Shown here: positions 1,417 through 63,259 of the stretch, piece after piece
How positions within the stretch are numbered: position 1 is the first letter of the stretch
How the letters are laid out: the number at the start of each line of letters is the position of its first letter
NCBI GenBank assembly: GCA_963797625.1
Contig: CAWCQI010000027.1
Coordinates: forward strand, 192,774 to 256,773
Length of the DNA: 64,000 nt
DNA from: an uncultured Acidobacteriota bacterium
GTDB lineage: Bacteria; Acidobacteriota; Vicinamibacteria; Vicinamibacterales; 2-12-FULL-66-21
Reading direction: 5' to 3'
Notes under the pieces: model-generated
What the model was told of the DNA's origin: nothing
The model's input: only the letters and a program-made list of their open reading frames with translations
Database searches by the model: none
Made by a program: the position numbers and the translations under genes

Positions 1417-1421
1417 AGAAA

Positions 1422-1450
1422 TGCTGAATGCTGAGTGCTGAATGCTGAAT
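1422..1450 (+). repeat. four tandem TGCTGAR heptamers directly after the stop codon
   Basis: tgctgaa tgctgag tgctgaa tgctgaa begins 6 nt after TGA 1414-1416. The same string forms the left arm of the palindrome at 12261-12342. Confidence 0.85.
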
Positions 1451-2404: not shown

Positions 2405-2410
2405 AACCGG

Positions 2411-2470
2411 CTCTCAGCTATGAGCTATCAGCTCTCAGTATTTCTGCTGACAGCTGACAGCGGACAGCTA
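2411..2470. repeat. imperfect hairpin built from 7-nt periodic units between convergent genes
   Basis: Left arm ctctcagctatgagctatcagctctcag, loop tatttc, right arm tgctgacagctgacagcggacagcta. About 6 of 7 positions pair per unit. Same AGCTNTC/GACAGCT unit family as 11024-11139. Confidence 0.7.
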
Positions 2471-9245: not shown

Positions 9246-9272
9246 CACGGATCACACGGACAACACGGATCG
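9246..9272 (+). repeat. three tandem CACGGAYMA 9-mers downstream of the hydrolase gene
   Basis: cacggatca cacggacaa cacggatcg. Same unit as at 16846-16925, 20424-20458 (minus) and 60058-60081 (minus). Confidence 0.8.
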
Positions 9273-10167: not shown

Positions 10168-11025
10168 ATGGCTGACCGCTCAGAAGCCCAGCACCGCGCC
10201 GACATCGTCGAAGTCGGTCGCCGTCTTTATGCGCGCGGCTACACCGCCTCGAACGACGGCAACATCAGCCTCCGGCTCGACGCGTCGCGGCTGCTGATGA
10301 CGCCGACCAACGTCTGCAAGGGGTTCATGACCGTCGAGATGATGTGCATCACCGATCTCGACGGGAAGAAGATTGCCGGCGAGCGCAATCCGTCCTCCGA
10401 AATGCAGATGCACCTCGAGGTCTACCGCCAACGTCCCGAAATCCAGGCGGTGGTCCACGCACACCCGCCCATCGCCACCGGCTTCGCGGTCGCCGGTATC
10501 CCGCTCGATCGCGCGGTGCTTGCCGAGGTCGTCACCACGCTCGGGAGCGTGCCGATCGCCGAGTACGCGACGCCCTCGACCCGCGAGCTGCCTGAGGCCG
10601 TGCGCAAGTACGTCAAGGCGCACGATGGCATGCTCCTCGCCAACCACGGCGCGCTGACGCTCGGCGCCGACGTGTTCTCGGCCTACTACAAGATGGAGAC
10701 GATCGAGCACTTCGCCAAGATCAGTCTGGTGGCGCGAATGCTCGGCGGCGAGCGCCTGCTGTCGCGCGAGGAGGTCGCGCGGCTCGAGAAATTGCGCGGC
10801 TCCTACGGGATCGCCGCGCCCGCGCCGATCTGTCCCGAGCCCTCCGCCGCTGACCCGCTCGATTGCCAGGTGGTTCAGGCGCCATCGTCGACGCCAGGCG
10901 AGCGACTGGTTCCCCGGTCGCCCTCGGTGCGGCCGGGATCCGGCGTAGGCCCTGATGAGGAAATTCGGCTAACATACAGCGAGTTGACGGCGCTCATCGA
11001 GGACGCCGTACGAAGTCTCAAGTAG
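10168..11025 (+). CDS. class II aldolase/adducin-family enzyme (FucA/RhaD-like) with C-terminal encapsulation-peptide-like helix
   Basis: Zn/catalytic residues present (SSEMQMH, VVHAHPP, LLANHGALTLG). A ~55-aa Pro/Ser-rich linker follows, then the terminal amphipathic helix LTYSELTALIEDAVRSLK. Confidence 0.8.
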   Translation: MADRSEAQHRADIVEVGRRLYARGYTASNDGNISLRLDASRLLMTPTNVCKGFMTVEMMCITDLDGKKIAGERNPSSEMQMHLEVYRQRPEIQAVVHAHPPIATGFAVAGIPLDRAVLAEVVTTLGSVPIAEYATPSTRELPEAVRKYVKAHDGMLLANHGALTLGADVFSAYYKMETIEHFAKISLVARMLGGERLLSREEVARLEKLRGSYGIAAPAPICPEPSAADPLDCQVVQAPSSTPGERLVPRSPSVRPGSGVGPDEEIRLTYSELTALIEDAVRSLK

Positions 11026-11139
11026 CTATCAGCCATCAGCTGTCAGCTCTCAGCTCTCAGCTGGCGACAGTCGGACGACAAGACAGAATCACTAACAGCG
11101 GCGAGCTGACAGCTGAGAGCTGATAGCTGAGAGCTTTTT
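11024..11139 (+). terminator. long imperfect hairpin of AGCTNTC 7-mers followed by a T5 tract (terminator/attenuator-like) inside the BMC operon
   Basis: Left arm 11024-11063 and right arm 11104-11135 pair at about 28 of 32 positions. The loop is ~40 nt. ttttt at 11135-11139 lies just before the BMC-H RBS ggagg. Confidence 0.5.
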
Positions 11140-11152
11140 GTGGAGGCAGCAC

Positions 11153-11446
11153 ATGGGTGAGGCGCTCGGGATGGTCGAGACCAAAGGTCTCGTCGCGATG
11201 ATCGAGGCCGCGGACGCGATGGTCAAGGCCGCCAAGGTCACGCTCGTCGGCTGGGAAAAGATCGGCGCGGGTTATGTGACGGCAATCGTGCGCGGCGACG
11301 TCGCCGCAGTGAAGGCGGCGACCGACGCCGGCGCCGCCGCGGCGCGGCGCGTCGGAGAGCTCGTATCGGTGCACGTCATTCCGCGTCCGCATGCCAACCT
11401 CGAGGACGCGCTGCCGATCGGAAAGGCGACCGCAAGCGCGAAATGA
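11153..11446 (+). CDS. BMC-H shell protein (PduA/EutM/CcmK-type, single BMC domain)
   Basis: [63 protein letters not shown] ggagg at 11142-11146; ATG at 11153. Confidence 0.9.
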
Positions 11447-11997: not shown

Positions 11998-12277
11998 ATG
12001 CAAATCGCGCGTGTGGTCGGTACCGTGGTCTCCACGCAGAAGAACCGGAAGCTGGAGGGCGCCAAGCTGCTGCTCGTCCAGCCGCTGTCGATCGATGATG
12101 CACCGCGCGGCGTCCCGCTCATCGCGATCGATTCGGTGGGCGCCGGCATCGGCGAAAAGGTGCTGGTGGTGATCGAGGGCAAGGCCGCCGGGCGACGCGC
12201 TCGGCAAGAAAGCCGCCGCGGTCGATGCCGCGATCATCGGGATCATCGATACAATTACTTGCAATGCTGAATGCTGA
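11998..12277 (+). CDS. BMC-P vertex protein (EutN/CcmL family), paralogue 3; +1 frameshift at ~12190-12193
   Basis: MQIARVVGTVVSTQKNRKLEGAKLLLVQP..IAIDSVGAGIGEKVLVVIEGKAAG, then frame 2 gives DALGKKAAAVDAAIIGIIDTITCNAEC. The extra base lies in a ggg run. The stop codon sits inside the repeat at 12261-12342. Confidence 0.8.
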
Positions 12278-12342
12278 GTGCTGAATGTAAATGATGAATT
12301 CAGCATTTACTTCAGCATTCAGCATTCAGCACTCAGCATTGC
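12261..12342. repeat. 82-nt near-perfect palindrome of GCTGAAT/GCTGAGT heptamers centred on gaattc
   Basis: The arm gcaatgctgaatgctgagtgctgaatg matches the reverse complement of cattcagcattcagcactcagcattgc with 2 mismatches in 27. Lies between BMC-P3 and the small Cys protein. Confidence 0.85.
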
Positions 12343-16842: not shown

Positions 16843-16845
16843 CGC

Positions 16846-16925
16846 CACGGATCACACGGATCATCGCCACGGATCAATCGGAACATCGATCACGGATCCA
16901 CGGATTACACGGATTACACGGATCA
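16846..16925 (+). repeat. array of about seven CACGGAT(C/T)A 9-mers filling the queE-queC spacer
   Basis: cacggatca cacggatca tcgc cacggatca atcggaacatcgat cacggatc cacggatta cacggatta cacggatca. Direct repeats with no complementary arm. Confidence 0.85.
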
Positions 16926-16926
16926 G

Positions 16927-17634
16927 ATGAGTCACACGGAGGACCAGAGCGGTCGGCGAGCCATCGTGCTGCTCAGCGGCGGCCTCGACTCGTTCACTGC
17001 CGCGGCGATGACGAAGTCCGAGGGCTATGAACTCTACGCCCTCAGCATCCGCTACGGCCAGATCCATGCGCGCGAGATTGAGGCGGCGCGCGCGGCGGCA
17101 CGCGCGCTCGGCGTCGCCCGGCATCTCGAGCTCGCGGTCGACCTCGCGGCGTTCGGTGGCTCGGCTCTCGTCGGTGACGGCACGATTCCGAAGGATCGCG
17201 CGCTCGAGAGCGATCACAGCATCCCGTCGACCTACGTGCCCGCGCGCAACACTGTCTTTCTCTCGCTAGCGCTCGCCTGGGCCGAGGTCGTCGGCGCAAC
17301 CGCCATCGTCATCGGCGTGAACGCGCTCGATTATTCGGGGTATCCAGACTGCCGGCCTGAGTACCTCGAGGCCTTCGAGCGCATGGCCGCACTCGCCACC
17401 AAGGCCGGCGTCGAAGGCCGGCCGCTGCAGATCCTGGCGCCACTCCTGCGTCTGTCGAAGGCCGACATCATCCGACGCGGTCTCGCGCTCGGGCTCGATT
17501 ACGCGGTCACCCACAGTTGCTACGACCCGGCGCCGTCTGGCGCGCCCTGCGGCCGTTGTGACAGTTGCCGCCTGCGAGCGAAGGGATTCGCAGAAGCCGG
17601 TGTCGCCGACCCGGTGATCGGGGGACATTCGTGA
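16927..17634 (+). CDS. queC: 7-cyano-7-deazaguanine synthase
   Basis: PP-loop [11 protein letters not shown]; C-terminal zinc cysteines [14 protein letters not shown]. Confidence 0.9.
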
Positions 17635-20423: not shown

Positions 20424-20458
20424 TCCGTCTGGTCCGTGTTATCCGTGTTATCCGCGGC
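20424..20458 (-). repeat. CACGGATAA-type 9-mers (sense on minus strand) between the DUF4340 gene and dacB
   Basis: The minus strand reads cggataacacggataacacggaccagacgga. Confidence 0.75.
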
Positions 20459-28842: not shown

Positions 28843-29103
28843 ATGGCCACCTGTCCCGAATGTGATGCCGAAATCGAGATCGACGAATTCGACGTCGACA
28901 AGGGCGACCTGATTAGTTGCCCCGAGTGCGGCTCCAATCTCGAAGTGACCACCACTTCTCCGGTCGAGCTCGAAGCAGTCGATGAAGACGACGACGACGA
29001 CGATGACGACGAGGACGACGACGAAGTGGAGGATGACGACGCCGAACTCGACGACGAAGATGACGTAGACGACGACGCGAACGGGGAGGACTGGGAAGAG
29101 TGA
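28843..29103 (+). CDS. LysW-like zinc-ribbon amino-group-carrier-type protein with an unusually long poly-Asp/Glu tail
   Basis: MATCPECDAEIEIDEFDVDKGDLISCPECGSNLEVTTTSPVELEAV, then ~40 acidic residues ending GEDWEE (compare the LysW terminus EDWGE). Confidence 0.6.
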   Translation: MATCPECDAEIEIDEFDVDKGDLISCPECGSNLEVTTTSPVELEAVDEDDDDDDDDEDDDEVEDDDAELDDEDDVDDDANGEDWEE

Positions 29104-29994: not shown

Positions 29995-32255
29995 TTGGCG
30001 CGCATTCTCGTTGGCCTGATCGCGGTTGTGTCGTTCGCGGCGCACCTGACCGCGCTCCCCCCCACGCTCGAAGATTCCGACTCGGTCAATTTCGCGTTGG
30101 GCGTGCGCCATTTCGACGTCGCCCAGCATCAACCCCACCCGCCCGGTTACCCGATCTTCATCGCTCTCGGAAAGCTCGGTACGTCCGCGCTCACCCGGGC
30201 CGGCATCGCGAGCCCGGATGTGCGCGGCCTCGCAATCTGGAGCGCCTTCGCCGCTGGCGCGCTGCCATTTTTCTTTTTTGCGTTCTTCCGGCGGCTCGGC
30301 GGAGACGTTCCAGGCGAAAGTGGCGATCGACGCGCTGCAATCGCGACCCTGCTCATCGTCTGCAATCCGCTCTTCTGGTTCACCGCGACGCGGCCCCTGT
30401 CGGACATGGCCGGTCTCGCCGCAGCCTGGGCTGCGCTCGCCGCCCTGGGGTCAGGTCTCGATCTTCTCCCCCGAGTAGAAAATCGAGATCTGACCCCGCG
30501 GTGGTTGGTGGTCGGAGCGTTTCTCGCGGGGCTGTCGATCGGGTTCCGGTCGCAGATGGCGATTCTGACGATGCCGCTGCTTGTCTGGGTGGTCCTGACG
30601 CGTCCGCGCGTCAGGATGGCGGCCATCGCGGCTGCCATCGCCGGTGTCATCGCGTGGGTCAGTGCCGCTCATCTGGTTCAGCGGCGGCCCGCGTCGATAT
30701 ATTGCGGCGCTCGGCAGTCAGGCTGGCGAGGACTTTTCCGGCGTCGAGATGCTGTGGACGCATCCGACGCCGCGTGCCATCGTGACCGCCGTCCTCCAGA
30801 CCTTCGTTCGCCCATGGGACTCGCCGACGCTCGCTGGCATCATGCTGGCCTTCGCCGCCGCCGGCATCGTCGTCCTCCTGCGGCGTTCTCCGCGGGTGCT
30901 GGCCATCCTCGTGATGACCTTCGGCCCCTATGCCGTGTTCCATCTGCTCTTCCAGGACACGCCGGCCATTCGTTACGCGTTGCCGCTCGTCCCCCTCGTG
31001 GCGTATCTCGCGGCGGTCGTGACTGACTGAAGCCGACTCACGTGTTGGCGGCATCGTGGCGTCCGGGTTGGCCGTCGCTAGTCTCACTTTCGTGGTGCCC
31101 GCTGCTGCGGCTTTTGGCAAGACGCCAAATCCGACGTTCGCTCTACTTTCCGAAATGCGCCTGGTCCAGGACCGCGGCGCCAGGCCCGTCGTCGGCATGC
31201 ACCGTCGTGTGTTTACCGAATCGAAGCGCGCCCGGCTCTATGCCGGTGATGTTCCGGGCAGGCTGCTGCCGGCGCCTCGGGACTACGAGTGGCTCGAACT
31301 GACTCGCGCGTGGCGCGAGGGTCACGACGGCGAGACGTGGTTTGTCGCCGATCCGCGCCGGACCGACCTTGCATTGATCGATCGTGACCACGCCAGGACC
31401 CGCCAATATCGCTGGCCCTTCAACGCCGCCGTTTACGTCGGCGGCGCCAGGCCAGACGAACTCGACTGGCATGTCGTGACCGAGCCGGGATGGTTTCTCG
31501 AGCAGGGCTGGGCGCTGACACCTGAGACGGCTGGGATCGCCGAACGGGACGGGTGGGGGCCGCACCGCAAACCGAGCATCGGCTGGGTGCGCCGTCGCTC
31601 CACGGAATTGCTGATGATGATTGGCGGCCGCCACCTTGGCGGCGATCCGCCGGTCAACCTTCACGTGAATCTGGACGAGCGTCCAGTCACGACGCTGGTG
31701 ATACGTCCGGGTTATTTCCTCGATTTTGTGAACGTTCCCCCGGCGGCGCTGGCGGGCGAGGGCAGATACGCGAAGTTGACGGTGAGCGCGACGGTGCAGG
31801 GCGGCGGCGCAGTTCCACCGGTCGCGATCGAGCAGTTCAACCTCCAGCCGCCCGACCGGGTGCAATACGGCTTCGACCAGGGGTGGTACGAGCCGGAATA
31901 CAACCCGCGAACCGGTCGATCGTGGCGCTGGATGAGCGAGCGGGCCGTCGTCAGGGTGCATCCCGCAGGCAAGGCAGTCGTGCTTCGACTCGCCGGCGAG
32001 TCGCCGCTTCGCTACTTCGACGAGCCGCCGCGAATCACGATCAACGTCGGCGACCGTGTGGTCGCCGAGCTGACGCCGGCCGCGGACTTCACCGCCGAGG
32101 TATCGATCCCCGTCGACGCCCTCACAGGGGCCGACGGCCGGATCGTGCTCACCTCGGACCGCAGCTTCGTTGCGGGTGAGAAAGAGGGCACCGCCGACCG
32201 GCGCAAGCTGGCGATCCGCGTGTATTCGCTGAGCGTCGAGGCGGGGAGTCGCTAG
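29995..32255 (+). CDS. DUF2723/TMEM260-like polytopic membrane glycosyltransferase-family protein with large C-terminal domain; two +1 frameshifts (~30660, ~31026)
   Basis: TTG start 2 nt after the LarE-like stop. HPPGYPIF motif and many TM helices. Frames 1, 2 and 0 join as ..IAGVIAW|VPLIWFSGGPRRYIAALG.. and ..AYLAAVVT|EADSRVGGIVASGLAVASL.. Confidence 0.55.
30447..30497. repeat. intragenic hairpin element with GGGGTCAG..CTGACCCC termini
   Basis: ggggtcaggtctcgat (19 nt) atcgagatctgacccc pairs at 15 of 16 positions. Translated in frame as GSGLDLLPRVENRDLTPR. Confidence 0.7.
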
Positions 32256-37960: not shown

Positions 37961-38175
37961 ACAGTCGGCAGTCGGCGGTCGTCAGTCGGCAGTCGCAGTC
38001 GTTAGTCTGAGTCGGCAGTCGCAGTCCTCAGTCGCAGTCCTCAGTCCAAGTCGTCAGTCGCAACGGGTCGACTTGGACTGTCGACTCGAACTCGACTAGG
38101 ACTGTCGAGTTGGACTGACTGACTCAGACTGAAGACTGTGACTGCCGACTGACGACCGCCGACTGACGACTGTCG
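37961..38175. repeat. ~215-nt imperfect palindrome built from CAGTCG/GACTG units, upstream of the pyrR operon
   Basis: The outer ~45-55 nt of the arms pair with only about 3 mismatches (gtcggcggtcgtcagtcggcagtc.cagtc.t.agtctgagtc). Inner stem cagtccaagtc/gacttggactg with a 16-nt apical loop at 38054-38069. Confidence 0.8.
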
Positions 38176-38322
38176 TGTTACACTACTGCAGCTCTTTAAG
38201 TGCGTCCCTGTGAGGCCGCCAAGAGGTGCCACGTTGAATACTCCGTCCACGCCTTCAACTTTCCGCTCGGTCTCTGCACGATTCCGCTCCACGCCTTTCC
38301 GGATCTGCCGACAGAGGTCCAG

Positions 38323-41197: not shown

Positions 41198-41821
41198 ATG
41201 ACGGTCAATCGTCTGGAAGACCTGCGGGATCAGGCACTCAAGAAGCTTCAGACTTTCGAGGTGCTCATGACCGACGGGCATTTCGACTACCACAACGGAT
41301 TTCACGGTCGGGTCTACCTGAATCCTCACCAGCTGCTGCAGCATCCATCGACGATCTGGCGTTTGGCGCAGGATCTGCTCGACACGCTGCCGCTGCCCCT
41401 TATCGAACAGACCGACATTGTTGCCGGACCAGCCACCGGCGGCGCGCTCGTCGCGCATACGCTGGCGGGGCTGATCGACGGGCGTCGTGCCTTGAGCCAT
41501 CCGGCGTGCAGCTTTGCCCCCTTCACGCCGGGTGAGGGCAAGTTCACGCTGCGGAGCTTCTATGCGCGCTTGATGCGAGGCAAACGCGTGCTGCTGGCCG
41601 ACGACGTGCGGAATACCGGGAAGACGTTTCAACGCTGCGCGAAGCTTGTCGCAGAGGCCGGAGGCACCGTGCTCGCAACCGTCGAAATCTGCGATCGGAT
41701 GGAAGCCATCGTCGACCTCGGCGTTCCCAACTACGCCCTCGTCGAGTACCGCGCCCCCGAGAACTATCGCGAGGCCGAGTGCCCGATGTGCGCGGCCGGT
41801 GAGCCGGTGACGGCGTTTTAG
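41198..41821 (+). CDS. type I phosphoribosyltransferase, divergent PyrE-like paralogue
   Basis: PRPP loop VLLADDVRNTGKT. TDGHFDYHNGFHGRVYL replaces the GHFxLSSGxHS box seen in the pyrE gene at 49764. C-terminal CPMC. Confidence 0.65.
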   Translation: MTVNRLEDLRDQALKKLQTFEVLMTDGHFDYHNGFHGRVYLNPHQLLQHPSTIWRLAQDLLDTLPLPLIEQTDIVAGPATGGALVAHTLAGLIDGRRALSHPACSFAPFTPGEGKFTLRSFYARLMRGKRVLLADDVRNTGKTFQRCAKLVAEAGGTVLATVEICDRMEAIVDLGVPNYALVEYRAPENYREAECPMCAAGEPVTAF

Positions 41822-41921
41822 GCTCATGGCTCATGGCTCAAGGCTCAGGGCTCAGGCAAGACCTCGGAACAGTCGCTCGAAGATCTTGCTTGCCTTGAGC
41901 CTTGAGCCTGAGCCATGAGCC
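41821..41921. repeat. 101-nt hairpin with arms of GGCTCAN heptamers
   Basis: Left arm ggctcat ggctcat ggctcaa ggctcag ggctcag gcaag; loop ~24 nt; right arm cttgcttgccttgagccttgagcctgagccatgagcc. The right arm contains ATG 41915. Confidence 0.8.
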
Positions 41922-42794: not shown

Positions 42795-43273
42795 TCGCGG
42801 CGCTGATCCTCGGGATCGTGCTCGGCGCCGCCGGCGCGTTCCTGCTGACCGCGCGGACGACGGAGCCGGCGCGCCGCCGCGTGATGGCCCGGATCTATTC
42901 CCCCGACAAGTCACGAGTGGCAGTGGCGCTCGAGGCGCCATGCGCGGAAGGCTTCTGTCAGGAATTGCGGCTCGGCACTTCTCAGGACGCGAGTCAGGTC
43001 GTCTCGTCGCTCACCAACAGAACGTGCGGCGAGATCGCCTGGACACCCGACGGCAAGAGAGTGGCGTTCGTGATCGACGGCTCAGAGATGGCGGTGTACG
43101 ACGTGCAGACCGCCAAACTCGCGGGAACCGTCCGGCTCCTGACATCGGAGGCGGCGCTGACCCGCATCGCGCGCGGTGTGACGTTCTCCGAGAACGGCCG
43201 CGCCGCGACGTTCGACGACTGCCCACGGACGCAGTCAGGCTGTCGTGCTGGCGTGGTGGGAGTGCCACAGTGA
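42737..43273 (+). CDS. hypothetical membrane-anchored protein
   Basis: TM helix FRLIAALILGIVLGAAGAFLL followed by a ~130-aa Cys-containing domain. GC3 bias supports coding. No family recognised. Confidence 0.4.
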   Translation: MSAQRAMPSTTASRATFRLIAALILGIVLGAAGAFLLTARTTEPARRRVMARIYSPDKSRVAVALEAPCAEGFCQELRLGTSQDASQVVSSLTNRTCGEIAWTPDGKRVAFVIDGSEMAVYDVQTAKLAGTVRLLTSEAALTRIARGVTFSENGRAATFDDCPRTQSGCRAGVVGVPQ

Positions 43274-43400
43274 GACAGGAGACAGGAGACAGGAGCTCGA
43301 GCGCGCAGCGAATCCGCACCGACACTTTCTGACAACGGTGCCAACCTTCAGCTTCTCCTGTCTCATCTCCTATCTTCTATCTCCTGTCTTCTGTCTCCTG
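43272..43400. repeat. hairpin-type element: (GAGACAG)x3 arm, ~56-nt spacer, CTCCTGT/CTNNTCT arm
   Basis: gagacaggagacaggagacaggag at 43272-43295 is partly complementary to cttctcctgtctcatctcctatcttctatctcctgtcttctgtctcctg at 43352-43400. Lies between convergent genes and overlaps the GT4 3' end. Confidence 0.7.
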
Positions 43401-44504
43401 ATCTTCGACATGCGGTCTCAGCGCGACGCGCTGGTAGACGCGTAGCGTCTCCTTCAGCATCCGCTCGGCGCTGAACCGCTGGCCGGCGCGTGCGCGCCCG
43501 GCCTTTCCCATCCGCTCGCGAAGCGCGGGGTCCTTCAAGAGGCGCACGATGGCGTCAGCCAGCGCCGCGTCGTTCCGCGCGGGAACGAGGATGCCGGTGT
43601 CGCCGTCGACCACGACCTCCGGGATGCCACCGGTGGCGGTCGCCACGATCGGCTTCCCGGCTGCCATCGCATCGAGCAGCGACGTGCCCAGGCCCTCGGT
43701 GATAGAGCTCATCACGAAAATGTCGAACGCCTTGTGGAGCGAGAGCACGTCGGGCCGGAAACCGGCGAGCAGGACGTGTTTCTCCAGGCGATGCTCCCGG
43801 ATCTGCCGCTCGAGCGCCGGGCGCAGCTCACCCTCGCCGGCGATGACGAAGCGCGCGTCGGGCACCTTGCGGACGACGAGCGCTGCCGCTTCGATGAGGT
43901 GCCGCTGTCCCTTGTGCGGGACGAGCGCCGCGACGTTCCCGACGATCGGCGCCTGATGTGGGAGAAACAGCTGCTCGTGAAGATTGGCGGGCGGCGCCAT
44001 CGAGACCCGCTCGAGGTCGATGCCCTCGTGCACGGTGACCGTTCGCGCCGCCGGCACGCCATCGGCGACCAGCATCGCGCGAATCGCTTCAGAGGCGCAG
44101 ATGAAGCAATCCACTTGTCGATACTTCCATCGCGAGAGCGCGCCGTTGCGCAGGTGAAAGTCGACCCGCCGCGAGGCGATGAGCGGCGGTTTGGCGAGTT
44201 GGGTGCTCATCGACAACGCCAGCCCAGCCATCGCGACGCCGTGCGGGTCGTGGGCATGGACCACGTCAGGCTTGAGCGTTTTGAGCAGGCGCGACAAACG
44301 CCAGGCCGCGCCGAGATCCATCTCGGTCTTGGGTGCCAGCGGGATGAGGTCCAGACCTTCCTGCGCGCGCTGCCGCAGTTCGCCGCCGGGATGCGCGACG
44401 AGCATCGTCCGATGACCGAGGCCGCGCAGGCCCAGCACGGTGACGAGGACCTGGTTCTGACCACCACGCCACGTGCGCGCCGTGTCGATGTGGAGAGAAA
44501 ACAT
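43377..44504 (-). CDS. glycosyltransferase family 4 (GT-B)
   Basis: VHAHDPHG.., FVMSSITEGLGTSLLDAMAAGKPIVAT, GILVP. The last ~8 codons are encoded by the repeat. Confidence 0.8.
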   Translation of the reverse strand: MFSLHIDTARTWRGGQNQVLVTVLGLRGLGHRTMLVAHPGGELRQRAQEGLDLIPLAPKTEMDLGAAWRLSRLLKTLKPDVVHAHDPHGVAMAGLALSMSTQLAKPPLIASRRVDFHLRNGALSRWKYRQVDCFICASEAIRAMLVADGVPAARTVTVHEGIDLERVSMAPPANLHEQLFLPHQAPIVGNVAALVPHKGQRHLIEAAALVVRKVPDARFVIAGEGELRPALERQIREHRLEKHVLLAGFRPDVLSLHKAFDIFVMSSITEGLGTSLLDAMAAGKPIVATATGGIPEVVVDGDTGILVPARNDAALADAIVRLLKDPALRERMGKAGRARAGQRFSAERMLKETLRVYQRVALRPHVEDQETEDRR

Positions 44505-45383: not shown

Positions 45384-45478
45384 CAGCTACCGGCTACCAG
45401 CTGCCAGCCTCCAGCGTCGGAGGGGAGGTTCTTCGTCGCTGGAAGCTGGGAGCTGGAAGCTGGAGCCGGCAGCGCTGG
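45384..45478. repeat. 95-nt hairpin with CCAGCTN/GGAAGCT periodic arms
   Basis: cagctaccggctaccagctgccagcctccagcg, 20-nt loop, cgctggaagctgggagctggaagctggagccggcagcgctgg. The inner 20 nt pair at about 18 of 20 positions. Confidence 0.8.
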
Positions 45479-50390: not shown

Positions 50391-51174
50391 GTGAGCCAGC
50401 GCACTCTGAGGCTGACGGTCGAATACGACGGCACGAACTACGTTGGCTGGCAGCGTCAGGCCGAAGGCGTATCGATTCAGGGACTGCTCGAGGAGGCGCT
50501 GCAGCCTTTCGAGGGCGAGCCGCTGACGGTGCACGGCGCGGGCCGAACCGATGCCGGAGTCCACGCCCTGGCCCAGGTGGCCAGCGTCCGGACGCGTACC
50601 CTTCATGATGTCCGCACGCTGCGCCGCGCGTTGAACGCAGTGCTCCCCACCGACGTGCGCGTCGTTTCTGTCGAAGACGCGCCTCCCGAGTTTCATGCGC
50701 GCTTCGATGCGGTCTCGAAGACCTACGCCTATCGGATAGCCAACGCTCCGGTCGTCTCGGCTTTCGAGCATCGCTTTGTCTGGCACGTCCCGGGCGCGCT
50801 CAACGTCGAGGCGATGCATCAGGGCGCGCAGGCGCTTCTCGGCCGTCATGACTTCGCGGCATTCCAGTCCAGCCGGCGGGGACGTCCACACCACGGAGCG
50901 CACGATCCTGTCGATTGCCGTGGAGCCAGAGCGGGGTCAGACCGGGGTCAGACCATGGTCTGACCCCGGTCTGACCCCGCTCGTCATTCGCGTGACCGGC
51001 GACGGCTTTCTGCGGCACATGGTCCGCTCGATCGCGGGCACGCTCGTTGACGTCGGCCTCGGCCGATGGCAACCGAGCGAGGTCGGCAGGATTCTGGCGG
51101 GCCGGGATCGCTCGCGCGCGGGCCGCGCCGCCCCGGCCTCGGGACTCTTTCTCGTCCGCGTCGACTATGTGTAG
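50391..51174 (+). CDS. truA: tRNA pseudouridine(38-40) synthase; +1 frameshift ~50873; carries an in-frame 54-nt palindrome
   Basis: LTVEYDGTNYVGWQRQ, GAGRTDAGVHA. ..HDFAAFQSS|GGDVHTTERTILSI..GDGFLRHMVR joins ORFs 50391-50963 and 50776-51174. Confidence 0.85.
50929..50982. repeat. perfect 54-nt palindrome, (GGGGTCAGACC)x2 arms, in codon register inside truA
   Basis: gagcggggtcagaccggggtcagacca|tggtctgaccccggtctgaccccgctc. Encodes ERGQTGVRPWSDPGLTPL on both strands; the same peptide appears in minus ORF 50800-51498. Confidence 0.9.
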
Positions 51175-51268
51175 CGGTTTTGCTTTATAATGCAAAGCTA
51201 GGCGCTCGCGCCTTGAAATGGCCCCGTAAGACTCTGTATTATCAGGATTTATTTGCCACGCTTGTCCG

Positions 51269-52054
51269 ATGGCGCTTGACGACTTCCTTTCCGCTCTGAC
51301 CTCCGGCTCCCCTGAAGAGGCGCTCGCCCGCCAGGTCGACTTCGACCGACTGCCGCGGCACGTCGCCGTCATCATGGACGGCAACGGCCGCTGGGCCGCG
51401 CAGCGCCATCTGCCGCGTGTCGAAGGCCACCGCGCCGGGATCGATTCGGTCCGCGAGGTCGTCGAAAGCTCGGCCCGGCTCGGCATCCAGGTGCTCACGC
51501 TCTATGCGTTCTCGGTCGAGAACTGGAAGCGGCCGGCGACGGAAGTCTCGACGCTGATGTCGCTCCTCAAGCGCTATCTCCGCCTCGAGCTGAACACGCT
51601 GCTGCGCAACAACATTCGCTTTCGCGTCATCGGCAGGGAAGAGGAACTGGCCCGCGACATCCGCGAAGAGTTGAAGGCGGCCGAAAGCAAGACCGCGGGC
51701 AACACCGGCATGCTCTTCAACATCGCCCTCAACTATGGGGGCCGGGCCGAGATTGTCGAAGCGACGAAGCGGCTGCTGGCCGCGCAGGTTCCGCCCGAAG
51801 AGCTCGACGAGCAGCGCTTCGCGGGTTTCCTCTATACCTCCGGGCAACCCGATCCCGATCTGTTGATTCGGACGAGCGGCGAGATGCGGATCAGCAATTT
51901 TCTGCTCTGGCAGATTGCCTACGCTGAGATCTGGGTCACCGACACGCTGTGGCCGGATTTCCGGAAGCGGGATCTGCTCGAGGCCGTTCTCGCCTACCAG
52001 AAGCGCGACCGCCGCTACGGCGGCATCAACAAGCCAGTGGTCGCGGGTCGCTGA
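51269..52054 (+). CDS. uppS: undecaprenyl-diphosphate synthase
   Basis: HVAVIMDGNGRWA, AFSVENWKRP, RTSGEMRISNFLLWQ. Confidence 0.9.
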   Translation: MALDDFLSALTSGSPEEALARQVDFDRLPRHVAVIMDGNGRWAAQRHLPRVEGHRAGIDSVREVVESSARLGIQVLTLYAFSVENWKRPATEVSTLMSLLKRYLRLELNTLLRNNIRFRVIGREEELARDIREELKAAESKTAGNTGMLFNIALNYGGRAEIVEATKRLLAAQVPPEELDEQRFAGFLYTSGQPDPDLLIRTSGEMRISNFLLWQIAYAEIWVTDTLWPDFRKRDLLEAVLAYQKRDRRYGGINKPVVAGR

Positions 52055-56269: not shown

Positions 56270-57622
56270 ATGCTTCCCTCCGTTCGCGATCTCAGACAGG
56301 AACTCCGGCCGATGGTCACGCTCGCGGCCCCTGTGGTCGTCGCGGAGATCGGCTGGGTCGCGATGGGGTTGGTCGACACGCTGATGGTCGGGCCTCTTGG
56401 GCCGGAAGCCATCGGCGCCGTGGGTGTCGGCAGTTCGCTCTTCATCGGCGTGGTGATCTTCGCGATGGGGATCCTGCTCGGCCTCGACACGCTGGTGTCG
56501 CAGGCCTACGGCGCCGGACGCATCGACGAGTGCCACCGATGGCTCGTGCACGGCGCCGTGCTGAGCCTGGTGGTCGCCGTGCCCGTCACGCTCCTGCTCG
56601 TCGGTCTCTCCGCCGTTCTTGCCGGTTGGGGTCTCGATCCTTCGGTCCTGGTCCTGACGCGACCGTACCTGGATGTCGTGACCTGGAGCGTGCTACCGCT
56701 CCTGCTGTACGCGACGTTCCGTCGCTATCTCCAGGGCATGGGCGTCGTGCGGCCGGTCATGATTGCGCTCGTCACGGCCAACATCACCAACGTGATCGTC
56801 AACTGGGTACTCATCTACGGCAAGCTCGGCGCGCCGGCGATGGGCGTGCGCGGGGCCGCGTGGGCCACGGTACTCTCGCGCGTGGTGATGGCGGCGTATC
56901 TCCTGGGCACAATCGTCGCGCGCGAGCGTAGCCGTCGGCCTGGCCTGTTCGAGACGCCGCTCGCGATCGAGTGGTCGTGGATACGGAGGCTGCTGAGGCT
57001 CGGGGTGCCAGCGGCGTCGCAAATCACGCTCGAGGTCGGCGTGTTCGCCGCCTCAACGGCGCTCGCGGGACGACTGGCGCCGATCGCGCTCGCCGCGCAC
57101 CAGATCGCCATTCACATCGCCGCGCTGTCATTCATGGTCCCGCTCGGGATTTCGTCGGCGGGCGCGGTGCGCGTCGGCCACGCGGTCGGGCGCCGCGACC
57201 CGGCCGGAGCCGCGCGCGCGGGATGGACGGCGCTGGCGCTCGGCGCGGTCTTCATGGCTTGCACGGCCGCCGCATTCGTGCTGTTTCCGAGGGCGCTGAT
57301 GGGCGGCTTCACCCGCGACGAAGGTGTCCTCAGCCTTGGGGTCTCGCTCCTTGCCGTCGCCGCGGTCTTCCAACTCTTCGACGGAATCCAGGGCGTCGCC
57401 ACCGGAGTACTCCGCGGCCTCGGCGACACGCGCACGCCAATGATCTGGAATTTGATCGGCCACTGGTTCATCGGCCTGCCGACCGGCTATTTCCTGTGCT
57501 TCGGCCTCGGGCGAGGCGTGGTGGGTCTCTGGTGGGGCCTGTCGATCGGCCTCATCATCTGCGGCGCTGTATTGCTGGTGGTGTGGTCGCGCCGAATCCG
57601 CGCGCTGAAAGCCGAACCCTGA
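56270..57622 (+). CDS. MATE family efflux transporter
   Basis: 12 predicted TM helices. N-terminus LRPMVTLAAPVVVAEIGWVAMGLVDTLMVG. ATG 56270 preferred over the ORF opening at 56231. Confidence 0.8.
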   Translation: MLPSVRDLRQELRPMVTLAAPVVVAEIGWVAMGLVDTLMVGPLGPEAIGAVGVGSSLFIGVVIFAMGILLGLDTLVSQAYGAGRIDECHRWLVHGAVLSLVVAVPVTLLLVGLSAVLAGWGLDPSVLVLTRPYLDVVTWSVLPLLLYATFRRYLQGMGVVRPVMIALVTANITNVIVNWVLIYGKLGAPAMGVRGAAWATVLSRVVMAAYLLGTIVARERSRRPGLFETPLAIEWSWIRRLLRLGVPAASQITLEVGVFAASTALAGRLAPIALAAHQIAIHIAALSFMVPLGISSAGAVRVGHAVGRRDPAGAARAGWTALALGAVFMACTAAAFVLFPRALMGGFTRDEGVLSLGVSLLAVAAVFQLFDGIQGVATGVLRGLGDTRTPMIWNLIGHWFIGLPTGYFLCFGLGRGVVGLWWGLSIGLIICGAVLLVVWSRRIRALKAEP

Positions 57623-57650
57623 ACCTCTGAACCCTGTGAACCCTGAACCA
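57614..57650. repeat. four CTGAACC-type units filling the convergent MATE/ispG spacer
   Basis: gaaccctgaacctctgaaccctgtgaaccctgaacca. Includes the MATE stop codon. Confidence 0.7.
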
Positions 57651-62331: not shown

Positions 62332-62835
62332 TCAAGTGTGAGCGCCCGCACCGAGCGCAGCGCGCAGCTTTGTCGCGGCTCGATCGAACAGCGTGACGTT
62401 CATCCACAGCGCCTCATAGGTCGACCACCACTGCAAGCCAGCCGCGGCGGGATGAGCTGCGTGCAGATGACGTGCCTGCGGCTGCGTCATGTCTCGCTGA
62501 CGAGTGGCGACGACCGATGGCCGCAAACGCTCACGGCGAAGGACCACCGGATCGTCGAGATCGATGAGCTCGACAGGATCGGCCAGTTCCAACTCGGCCA
62601 GGCCGAGGGGGAGCCCGCGGCGGCGCAGCAACGAAGGGAGAAGTCGCTGGCCGCGGAACCGCGCGAGCTGTTCGGCGACCGACGAGAGGGCGCGAGTGGA
62701 GAGATACAGGCAGCCGAAAAGCTCAGGGTTGTCGTGCCGGCCCTCACCCTGGAACACCCGCGGAAACCAGAGCGGCCCATCAGCGGCCCGATCGTCCGCG
62801 CGGGCGTCCCACGCGAAGCAGCGGTAGAGGATCAC
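62332..62835 (-). CDS. RES-domain toxin
   Basis: GRHDNP..CLYLS..VAE..WWSTYE (R-E-S signature). GTG start in a GTGA overlap with the antitoxin stop. Confidence 0.8.
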   Translation of the reverse strand: MILYRCFAWDARADDRAADGPLWFPRVFQGEGRHDNPELFGCLYLSTRALSSVAEQLARFRGQRLLPSLLRRRGLPLGLAELELADPVELIDLDDPVVLRRERLRPSVVATRQRDMTQPQARHLHAAHPAAAGLQWWSTYEALWMNVTLFDRAATKLRAALGAGAHT

Positions 62836-63164
62836 GCGAAGCTGTCCGAGCGCTCGGCCCGAATCGCCCGCATCAGCTCCTCAGCGCGGCCCAGGCGAAT
62901 GAGATCAATCGGGCGGCGGTCTCCGAGCAGCGGGTTCACACCGAACAGCCACGCGAGTGCCGCGTCGCGCTCGTACAGACGGAGTACGTTCGACCAGACG
63001 AGCTCGAGCAGGTCGACTTTCTCGGCGTTGAGTGGGTCGATCCCGGCCCCCTGCAGCCAGCGCGTCACCTGGGAACGGCTGACCCCGAGGAGATCGGCCA
63101 ATTGCGCCGCCGAGCGGAAATCCGCTCGAAGCGCCTCAATCTTCTGGGCAAACGCCACCGGCAT
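62832..63164 (-). CDS. Xre-type HTH / DUF2384-like antitoxin (MbcA/ParS family)
   Basis: HTH LADLLGVSRSQVTRWL. C-terminal WLFGVNPLLGDRRPIDLIRLGRAEEL. Confidence 0.8.
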   Translation of the reverse strand: MPVAFAQKIEALRADFRSAAQLADLLGVSRSQVTRWLQGAGIDPLNAEKVDLLELVWSNVLRLYERDAALAWLFGVNPLLGDRRPIDLIRLGRAEELMRAIRAERSDSFA

Positions 63165-63175
63165 GTCTCATGATA

Positions 63176-63213
63176 GCGCAACAAAAACTGTTGCGCAACA
63201 GAAACTGTTGCGC
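63176..63213. promoter_or_regulatory. two overlapping palindromes, candidate antitoxin operator
   Basis: GCGCAACA-aaaa-CTGTTGCGCAACAG-aaa-CTGTTGCGC, starting 12 nt upstream of the antitoxin ATG. Confidence 0.55.
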
Positions 63214-63259
63214 TCGGCGGCACCGGGGCCCACGCGGCGGCCCGCGTCCGCCGCCGATC

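Follow-up and report, generated by a model that had tools for sequence, protein, structure and literature searches.

Why does a gene for a tRNA-modifying enzyme carry a perfect palindrome in its coding sequence? The question arises in a 64,000-nucleotide (nt) stretch of contig CAWCQI010000027.1 (assembly GCA_963797625.1) from an uncultured Acidobacteriota bacterium, referred to here as the window. Its truA gene contains a spacer-free palindrome of 54 nt that is read as 18 codons. A first-pass annotation of the same DNA had interpreted this palindrome as a new insertion resembling the Rickettsia palindromic elements (RPEs). Comparison with orthologous loci leads us to a different account: the truA palindrome is a resident copy of a dispersed repeat family, inherited with the gene, and is probably evolving in place as a passenger without a catalytic role.

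A codon-aligned palindrome composed of 11-nt units

The two arms of the palindrome (50929-50955 and 50956-50982) are 100% complementary with 0 nt in between, as judged by inverted-repeat comparison, and the chance of perfect complementarity over 27 nt is negligible (4^-27). The palindrome begins on a codon boundary of the 3' truA frame, within the open reading frame (ORF) 50776-51174, and is translated as ERGQTGVRPWSDPGLTPL between RTILSIAVEP and VIRVTGDGFLRHMVR, just as the first-pass annotation had described. Its observation that the opposite strand encodes the same peptide also holds, as seen in the minus-strand ORF 50800-51498, and is a trivial consequence of a palindrome that is both perfect and in register.

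Internally, the palindrome consists of two direct and two inverted copies of the 11-nt unit GG-GGTCAGACC (Table 1). The 9-nt core of this unit, GGTCWGACC, is a quasi-palindrome, palindromic apart from its central base. Direct (A-type) and inverted (T-type) units can therefore be told apart only by this base and by the 2-nt spacer, GG in the former and CC in the latter. The sequence GGTCAGACC is stop-free in every frame, whereas the T-type unit contains TGA in one of three frames (GGTCTGACC). Since three consecutive 11-nt units pass through all three frames, translation permits no more than two inverted units in an array. Among the coding copies found, none has more than two T-type units on the sense strand. 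As RNA, the palindrome would form a hairpin with a predicted folding free energy (dG) of -58 kcal/mol; no U-tract lies downstream of it, and no terminator is predicted at the site.

Orthologous truA loci range from direct arrays to the palindrome

To place the palindrome among its orthologues, the DNA of ten orthologous truA loci was compared and the units in each were mapped. L001, L177 and L178, which differ from the window by 3–4% of nucleotides, carry four direct units at the site and encode homologous residues from non-palindromic DNA. L004 and L179 have a 3+1 arrangement (three direct units, one inverted). The 2+2 arrangement with an AT centre is found in the window and in L002, an independent metagenome contig from the Joint Genome Institute (JGI) that shows one mismatch. 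In L003, a SPAdes contig, 33 nt are deleted, and what persists of the hairpin is its outer ends, CGGGGTCTGACCCCG. L005 and L007 contain seven and eight direct units, and L006 has an unrelated hairpin in the truA loop. The first-pass annotation had named homologous residues from non-palindromic DNA in related genomes as a refutation of its reading, and L001, L177 and L178 provide just this, so that the idea of a palindrome newly inserted here is not supported. The array is shared across a wide clade and only its palindromic state is recent, reached via intermediates like those in L004 and L179.

The pattern of substitutions fits this series. Relative to L001, the window has 8 substitutions within the 54 nt where 1.8 would be expected (Poisson P=5e-4), and the palindrome is the densest-substituted 54-nt stretch in the 3.8-kb block shared by the two loci. 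All eight (8/8) raise self-complementarity. Total length is the same, at four units, in direct and palindromic alleles. A tree from which the loop was excluded unites the six closest alleles in one clade with 100% bootstrap support. An invertase-type flip of the 3' arm was considered and rejected: reverse-complementing the 20-nt arm gives the spacers AT and GG, whereas direct alleles have GG and AG.

The array encodes a length-variable loop that is predicted to be disordered

A large protein collection yielded thousands of TruA matches, the best 120 of which were aligned (62–97% identity, 230–310 amino acids (aa)). These orthologues have near-identical flanks (…ERTILSIAV and PLVIRVTGDGFLRHMVR…), and variation is almost confined to the loop in between. 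The array is present at the loop in most orthologues above about 72% identity, and many loops read GSDRGQTGVRPGSDQGQT, the translation of direct tandem GGGGTCAGACC units. Array-type loops are 7, 18, 29 or 40 aa long, with steps of 11 aa that correspond to 33 nt or three units; the 7-aa loops are short two-unit forms. Orthologues without unit-derived peptide have loops of 0–6 aa.

The suspicion that this segment is longer than expected for TruA proved correct, given that the window loop exceeds that of Escherichia coli TruA (1DJ0) by 13 aa and that of Thermus TruA (1VS3) by 9 aa. The 18 residues thus do constitute an insertion relative to distant TruA proteins, although not one that is new in this genome. 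In the AlphaFold model of P0004, an intact TruA that is 94% identical and has the same palindrome peptide, the insert lies between strands 169–179 and 197–203, and the predicted local distance difference test score (pLDDT) is below 50 at residues 182–190. The model as a whole has a predicted template-modelling score (pTM) of 0.82 and a TM score of 0.87 to 1DJ0. The insert is accordingly modelled as the disordered tip of a beta-hairpin, in line with the earlier idea that it is tolerated in a surface loop. A review (PMC12710931) contains no residue-level statement on the TruA loop hairpin.

Other repeats also occur in this loop. In L006 (2023-2190), an insert of about 45–50 aa derives from a hairpin with heptamer arms, GGGATCN/NGATCCC, whose dG of -89.5 compares with -62.9±4.6 for shuffled sequences. 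Heptamer-arm inserts are likewise found in the loop of at least seven further orthologues (P0030, P0034, P0036, P0041, P0042, P0045 and P0047-type), and about a dozen more have a loop variant of about 30 aa, GSDP…SDRGLTP. The truA loop has thus been colonised by more than one repeat family.

The frameshift in the window truA is probably a consensus artefact

The first-pass annotation had overlooked that truA is not a single open frame in the window. A break 55 nt upstream of the palindrome separates the 5' part from the 3' part (Table 1). With one base taken out of AGCCGGC, the translation reads FQSSGGDVHTTERTI, like that of all orthologues, and the rebuilt protein of 260 aa matches the TIGR00071 equivalog with 172 bits (cut-off 142.85). 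It aligns over residues 6–259 with E. coli 1DJ0 (E=6e-46), end-to-end also with Thermus TruA, and retains GRTDAGVH with the catalytic Asp.

The closest genome locus, L001, is 95–96% identical to the window at the nucleotide level over about 6.5 kb, and in this alignment the extra base is the sole frame-breaking intragenic indel. The codon concerned reads AGC-GGC in L001 and ACC-GGC in L003, the nearest relative (1.8% divergence), and the AGCC of the window looks like these two alleles collapsed into one consensus. Outside the loop, synonymous and non-synonymous codon differences stand at 18:5 against L001 and 10:3 against L003, and 3' of the frameshift every codon difference from either locus is synonymous. 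The 18:5 ratio points to purifying selection on truA outside the loop. Because the extra base falls on a polymorphic AGC/ACC codon and the differences are mostly synonymous, a consensus artefact is probably the better explanation of this base than a pseudogene.

The description of the host as an essential-type enzyme was overstated. TruA is the tRNA pseudouridine38-40 synthase, and it is non-essential in E. coli and Salmonella, whose hisT mutants are viable. The AT-rich spacer between truA and uppS contains a sigma-70-like promoter match at 51213-51242, TTGAAA-18-TATTAT (10/12), and differs from L001 by a 1-nt indel at 51216.

The unit belongs to a dispersed repeat family of Acidobacteriota

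The 11-nt unit and the CATG-centred palindrome were found at more than 170 loci other than truA, in metagenome-assembled genomes (MAGs) of Acidobacteriota (Vicinamibacterales) and in soil metagenomes. In GTDB species-representative genomes, the two-unit pattern GGGTCAGACCNGGGTCAGACC matches at least 117 stretches; none of these listed matches lies in truA, in a search whose tblastn control worked. Acidobacteriota MAGs, many labelled Vicinamibacterales, account for 81 of the 117 listed matches, with up to 8 matching contigs per MAG. Among the Acidobacteriota matches listed, the GG/AG spacer of the truA type is present at 155 of 178 adjacent-unit junctions, and runs extend to 11 units. The palindrome centre GGTCAGACCATGGTCTGACC occurs in 52 soil-metagenome contigs, and none of these 52 matches is in truA. 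Most of its copies are single-unit palindromes of 24–26 nt, (T)GGGGTCAGACCATGGTCTGACCCC(A). The 2+2 element of the window recurs in L172, perfect arms of 23 nt are found in L150 as well, and L050 has the window palindrome with one mismatch. For the window itself, one gene matches Vicinamibacterales MAG loci at 76–79% nucleotide identity, which together with the distribution of the repeat family is indirect evidence of its taxon.

The arrays vary in orientation. Direct arrays account for 85 of the 123, many of them terminating in a degenerate inverted unit; the others comprise 26 direct-then-inverted hairpins, 7 arrays in inverted-then-direct order and 5 mixed ones. The loops between arms span 2–190 nt and are unrelated in sequence between copies. 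At the gathering score, Rfam 15 gave no matches in the window or in 16 loci with intergenic copies; the sub-threshold matches were to eukaryotic miRNA-precursor models only, as with any long hairpin. Neither the unit sequence nor comparable repeats in Acidobacteriota or Vicinamibacteria turned up in a literature search. The array-encoded peptide of 47 aa matched 7 short hypothetical ORFs in a collection of 5.8 billion proteins, on an E-value scale that is too strict for so short a query. The repeat family is previously undescribed in the literature searched and specific to Acidobacteriota, mostly Vicinamibacterales-type MAGs.

A CG-spacer variant, GGGTCWGACCC, is a fully quasi-palindromic 11-mer and occurs in Thermoleophilia, Acidimicrobiia and a few other phyla, mostly as two units. 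Arrays and hairpins of this variant (for example in L010, L016, L020, L022, L023, L065, L069, L070 and L073) belong to non-acidobacterial MAGs.

Most copies lie just downstream of genes and a minority are translated

The position of each copy was assessed with a stringent coding test, in which both flanks had to be open and coding-like by GC content at third codon positions (GC3) in the frame read through the array, and hosts were checked with Pfam. It classed as non-coding 98 of the 106 arrays that could be assessed and 43 of 44 copies of the CATG centre. The stringent test places about 8% of copies inside ORFs and a looser one at most 17%. For intergenic copies, the median distance is 10 nt to a facing stop codon, which 52 of 77 have no more than 30 nt away, and 68 nt to a facing start. 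Convergent spacers are enriched, with convergent, tandem and divergent spacers numbering 23/31/10 compared with 73/156/79 in the background (chi-square p=0.037).

Pfam identified 14 other genes with in-frame copies. These encode a 2-oxoacid dehydrogenase E2 (in the inter-domain linker), a Methyltransf_28 protein, an M14-type peptidase, an FHA protein, an S9 peptidase, MFS and CitMHS transporters (in central loops), QueA, a HEAT protein, PriA, a DUF1295 protein and an alpha-2-macroglobulin, together with two hosts that have two separate copies each, an ornithine cyclodeaminase (L040 2015-2442) and an amidase (L132, around 2130 and near the ORF N-terminus). At least 15 host families encode peptides of the GVRPGSDRGQT or SDPGLTP type. 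Two looser coding candidates, L139, a probable wrong frame with a DinB-like ORF on the opposite strand, and L151, a probable wrong-frame reading, were dropped without a Pfam test, and L047 had no Pfam support. Regarding the likening of the truA element to RPEs, the dispersed family and its in-frame copies elsewhere support the comparison, but phylum, size, sequence and the intergenic position of more than 90% of copies set the family apart from RPEs.

We looked for signs of mobility around the arrays. Position-frequency matrices of the 25-nt flanks of 105 arrays contain nothing conserved beyond the GG/CC of the unit. A GTAG or CGTC tag is absent from these flanks, and so are target-site duplications and direct repeats. 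At the two loci inspected, no transposase or REP-associated tyrosine transposase (RAYT; REP, repetitive extragenic palindrome) lies between paired copies, a weak test; a DinB-like gene and an FtsX-type permease gene are located there. A miniature inverted-repeat transposable element (MITE) was rejected as a model: the inter-arm sequences are similar only in L054 and L088 (GGAGTTTTTCCAA) and unrelated across the set, and there is no target-site duplication.

Inheritance and evolution in place compared with other explanations

The account that we consider probable is the following. The array would have been acquired once, at the tip of a beta-hairpin, by the ancestor of a large clade, so that the truA copy is old. 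It is translated as a disordered loop rich in Gly, Pro, Ser, Thr and Arg, probably without a catalytic role. Units would be gained and lost by slipped-strand events, with the gene retaining only multiples of three units (33 nt, 11 aa). The quasi-palindromic array could also fold on itself, and templated repair or synthesis would then replace direct by inverted units, starting at the outer end and moving inwards, to give first the 3+1 and then the 2+2 arrangement. This conversion may proceed by intramolecular template switching (PMC7202029, PMC3820800) or by gene conversion from other CATG-centre copies. The perfect palindrome, once formed, would provoke centred deletions such as that in L003, and the reading frame limits the inverted arm to two units, as a third would bring in an in-frame TGA.

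Several points weigh against this account. In the loop-free tree, the window and L003 cluster with L001, a direct allele, at 80% bootstrap support, and they never (0/200) join the palindromic L002. The palindromic alleles are thus non-monophyletic, and the same palindrome must have been produced or transferred at least twice: a change at 6 positions, among them an AT centre for which there is no template, has either occurred on two occasions or been passed on by recombination. Pure intramolecular template switching leaves the AT centre unexplained, whereas conversion from CATG-centre copies would explain it. The shared AT centre and the non-monophyly of the palindromes together favour some input from other copies or allele exchange. 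Sampling by intact protein misses out-of-frame alleles, so that the 33-nt steps are partly a sampling effect. The neutrality of the loop is suggested by its variability and by low model confidence, and the analysis gave no direct evidence of a mobilising enzyme, no target-site duplication and no conserved flank.

Other explanations have to be set beside it. A recent RPE- or MITE-like transposition, in which a mobile palindrome entered truA in frame in this genome or its immediate ancestor, could call on the 2+2 CATG-centre palindromes at unrelated loci (the same in L172, one mismatch in L050), on in-frame copies in at least 14 other genes, and on the scatter of palindromic truA alleles over the tree, as repeated replacement by a mobile copy could give. 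We nevertheless hold it to be unlikely: homologous units are already at the site in all close and most distant orthologues, direct and palindromic alleles share their four-unit length with 3+1 intermediates in existence, and the element has no target-site duplication or conserved terminus and, at the two paired-copy loci inspected, no transposase nearby. Selection for a function of the loop peptide or of the mRNA/DNA hairpin, for example as an extra loop for RNA binding or interaction, in the regulation of truA-uppS expression or as a phase-variation switch of truA based on the 11-nt unit, might account for the persistence of the array across a large clade and for a very stable hairpin (dG -58), and gain or loss of one or two 11-nt units would indeed switch the frame. 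Yet close relatives differ in loop length, orientation and repeat family, other orthologues have only 7 aa or 0–6 aa, the model has no ordered structure at the loop, the hairpin has neither a U-tract nor a predicted terminator, and the same peptide occurs in unrelated proteins, which together make selected function quite improbable.

Decay of truA into a pseudogene, with the palindrome as part of that decay, would fit the single extra base at 50872-50874 that breaks the gene into two frames. It becomes very unlikely in view of L002, whose truA has the same palindrome and is intact, of the synonymous excess outside the loop (18:5 and 10:3) with only synonymous differences downstream of the shift, of the lack of a second frame-breaking intragenic indel in the roughly 6.5 kb aligned to L001, and of the position of the extra base on the AGC/ACC codon that is polymorphic in the nearest relatives, like a collapsed consensus. 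An assembly artefact, in which the assembler would have made the palindrome as a fold-back or chimera, is exceedingly improbable. Fold-back reads can make perfect palindromes, and at least one suspicious indel lies nearby; the independent JGI contig L002, however, has the same palindrome with one mismatch, the SPAdes contig L003 has a deletion derivative, and L050 and L172 carry the element elsewhere.

Inheritance with evolution in place gives the locus a wider interest. One orthologous site keeps a direct array, a partial hairpin, a perfect palindrome and a deletion in genomes only 2–20% diverged, and the reading frame acts as a built-in filter that makes the constraints explicit (33-nt steps, at most two inverted units). 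The origin of REP-like palindromes, and whether they continue to arise de novo, is a stated open question for the GTAG and CGTC families (PMC3733652). With this locus, the RPE phenomenon, in which repeats supply peptide loops to housekeeping enzymes, extends to a phylum of free-living soil bacteria that is abundant but has been little studied. For Acidobacteriota MAGs, the arrays are a cause of length hypervariability, spurious short ORFs and frameshift-prone consensus.

A broader proposal is more tentative, and we regard it as doubtful at present: Vicinamibacterales-type Acidobacteriota might carry an undescribed class of 'iterated-stem' hairpin repeats, with units of 7, 9, 11 and 13 nt, each dispersed and the 11-mer family being one example, that may arise and spread by a mechanism other than classical transposition (no tag, target-site duplication or conserved core). 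Candidate routes of spread would be self-templated quasi-palindromic growth combined with ectopic conversion between copies, or an unrecognised hairpin-specific enzyme. If this were true, iterated-stem repeats would repeatedly seed disordered loops in housekeeping proteins (TruA, QueA, PriA, E2), and the truA allele series would be a natural snapshot of the de novo formation of a REP-like palindrome.

Other repeats in the window

The truA palindrome had been assigned to the same element class as the intergenic hairpins of the window, which is correct for architecture only, as the units differ. No further copies of the 11-mer are present in the 64-kb window, where a single unit with one mismatch occurs at 30487. 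About ten hairpins have tandem-heptamer arms (Table 1), each with its own unit, and several start a few bases from a stop codon. The unit AATGCTG occurs at two loci and an AGCTRTC-like unit at two, and 11103-11135 is followed by TTTTT. These heptamer hairpins, none of which matches Rfam, may be REP-like or terminator-like.

Table 1. Coordinates of the truA palindrome, its host gene and the heptamer-arm hairpins in the window.
Feature	Position	Strand	Description
truA, 5' part	50391..50873	+	Frame A; residues 1-161, catalytic RTDAGVH motif
Extra base in AGCCGGC	50872..50874	+	Shifts truA to the +1 frame; from comparison with L001 and L003
truA, 3' part	50875..51174	+	Frame B; palindrome loop and GDGFLRHMVR; stop codon 51172-51174
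Perfect palindrome, CATG centre	50929..50982	.	27+27 nt arms, spacer-free, 54 nt
Two direct 11-nt units, GGGGTCAGACC (A-type)	50933..50954	+	Exact matches at 50933-50943 and 50944-50954; open in 3/3 frames
Two inverted units, GGTCTGACCCC on the + strand (T-type)	50957..50978	-	Minus-strand matches at 50957-50967 and 50968-50978
Heptamer-arm hairpin	1420-1450		
Heptamer-arm hairpin	2410-2469		
Heptamer-arm hairpin	11024-11135		
Heptamer-arm hairpin	12263-12340		
Heptamer-arm hairpin	41821-41921		
Heptamer-arm hairpin	43267-43406		
Heptamer-arm hairpin	45384-45464		
Heptamer-arm hairpin	57614-57649		

The largest iterated-stem structure of the window, a hairpin of about 210 nt with 7- and 13-nt units (CAGTCGY…), occupies 37962-38172, directly 5' of the gene starting at 38200. 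Another dispersed short-unit family is represented by arrays of the 9-nt unit CACGGATCA at 9246-9271, 16843-16940 and 20433-20454 (a related unit at 20433). The array at 16843-16940 lies between two ORFs on the same strand and has up to about 11 copies. At 63175-63214, two overlapping 17-nt units, the palindromes GCGCAACA-N-TGTTGCGC, adjoin the start of the minus-strand gene 62832-63164 and resemble a tandem operator. The small LysW-type zinc-ribbon protein encoded at 28843-29103, an amino-group carrier, has an acidic tail that derives from a (GAC)n tract of about 30 copies.

A bacterial microcompartment (BMC)-domain shell-protein gene (11138-11446) has a heptamer-arm hairpin upstream in the window, and in a Vicinamibacterales MAG (L054 2158-2680) a BMC homologue is preceded by a hairpin with 11-mer arms and a 128-nt loop. 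Window positions 11024-11135 and L054 2158-2325 were tried as an orthologous spacer and rejected, as only the downstream BMC-shell gene is homologous and the upstream genes are not.

Comparison with known systems

Quasipalindrome template switching, described in E. coli and yeast, produces clustered multi-base changes that perfect imperfect inverted repeats (PMC7202029, PMC3820800). The 8 clustered substitutions and the 3+1 intermediates at truA match this pattern. Template switching is, however, a mutational mechanism and not an element family, and accounts neither for the AT centre that the palindromes share nor for the family's dispersal.

Among element families, RPEs are the closest in their relationship to coding sequence. 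They are about 150 bp long and specific to Rickettsia, lie in frame in unrelated housekeeping genes as fold-compatible loops, and nearly half of the copies in R. conorii are intragenic (PMC10969869). The elements described here are likewise found in frame in many unrelated genes, where they encode a family-specific peptide in fold-compatible loops. They differ in being 24–120 nt long, built from tandem 11-nt units, unrelated in sequence and only about 8% intragenic by the stringent test; the window palindrome itself measures 54 nt and lies in a 65% GC genome whose relatives are Acidobacteriota MAGs.

The variation in unit number by slippage is reminiscent of variable-number tandem repeats (VNTRs) and contingency loci, with the restriction that at truA only frame-preserving classes are seen (7, 18, 29 and 40 aa). 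Unlike in VNTRs, the unit is quasi-palindromic, so that the array also flips units and becomes a hairpin, and in orthologues sampled as intact proteins there is no sign of on/off switching. The short tandemly repeated repetitive (STRR) heptamers of cyanobacteria are similar to the 11-mer family in being short tandem-unit families dispersed in the genome.

In geometry and position, the nearest relatives are REPs, which have stems of 5–13 bp and loops of 2–20 nt and lie mostly just downstream of coding regions, occasionally within genes (PMC3733652). The single-unit form of the family, with a stem of 11 bp and a loop of 2–4 nt, falls within these reported ranges (PMC3733652), and the elements are short, GC-rich, present in multiple copies per genome and mainly extragenic, just 3' of genes. 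In contrast to REPs and REPINs, they lack both a GTAG or CGTC tag and a conserved unpaired tail. Their stems consist of tandem 11-nt units repeated up to 11 times, and there are also long arrays with direct units only. Acidobacteriota, their host phylum, has been reported for neither the GTAG nor the CGTC super-family (PMC3733652). By this comparison, the single-unit form is REP-like in geometry and position, and the in-frame copies behave like RPEs without belonging to the RPE family; the repeats are best regarded as a further form of the REP and RPE type.

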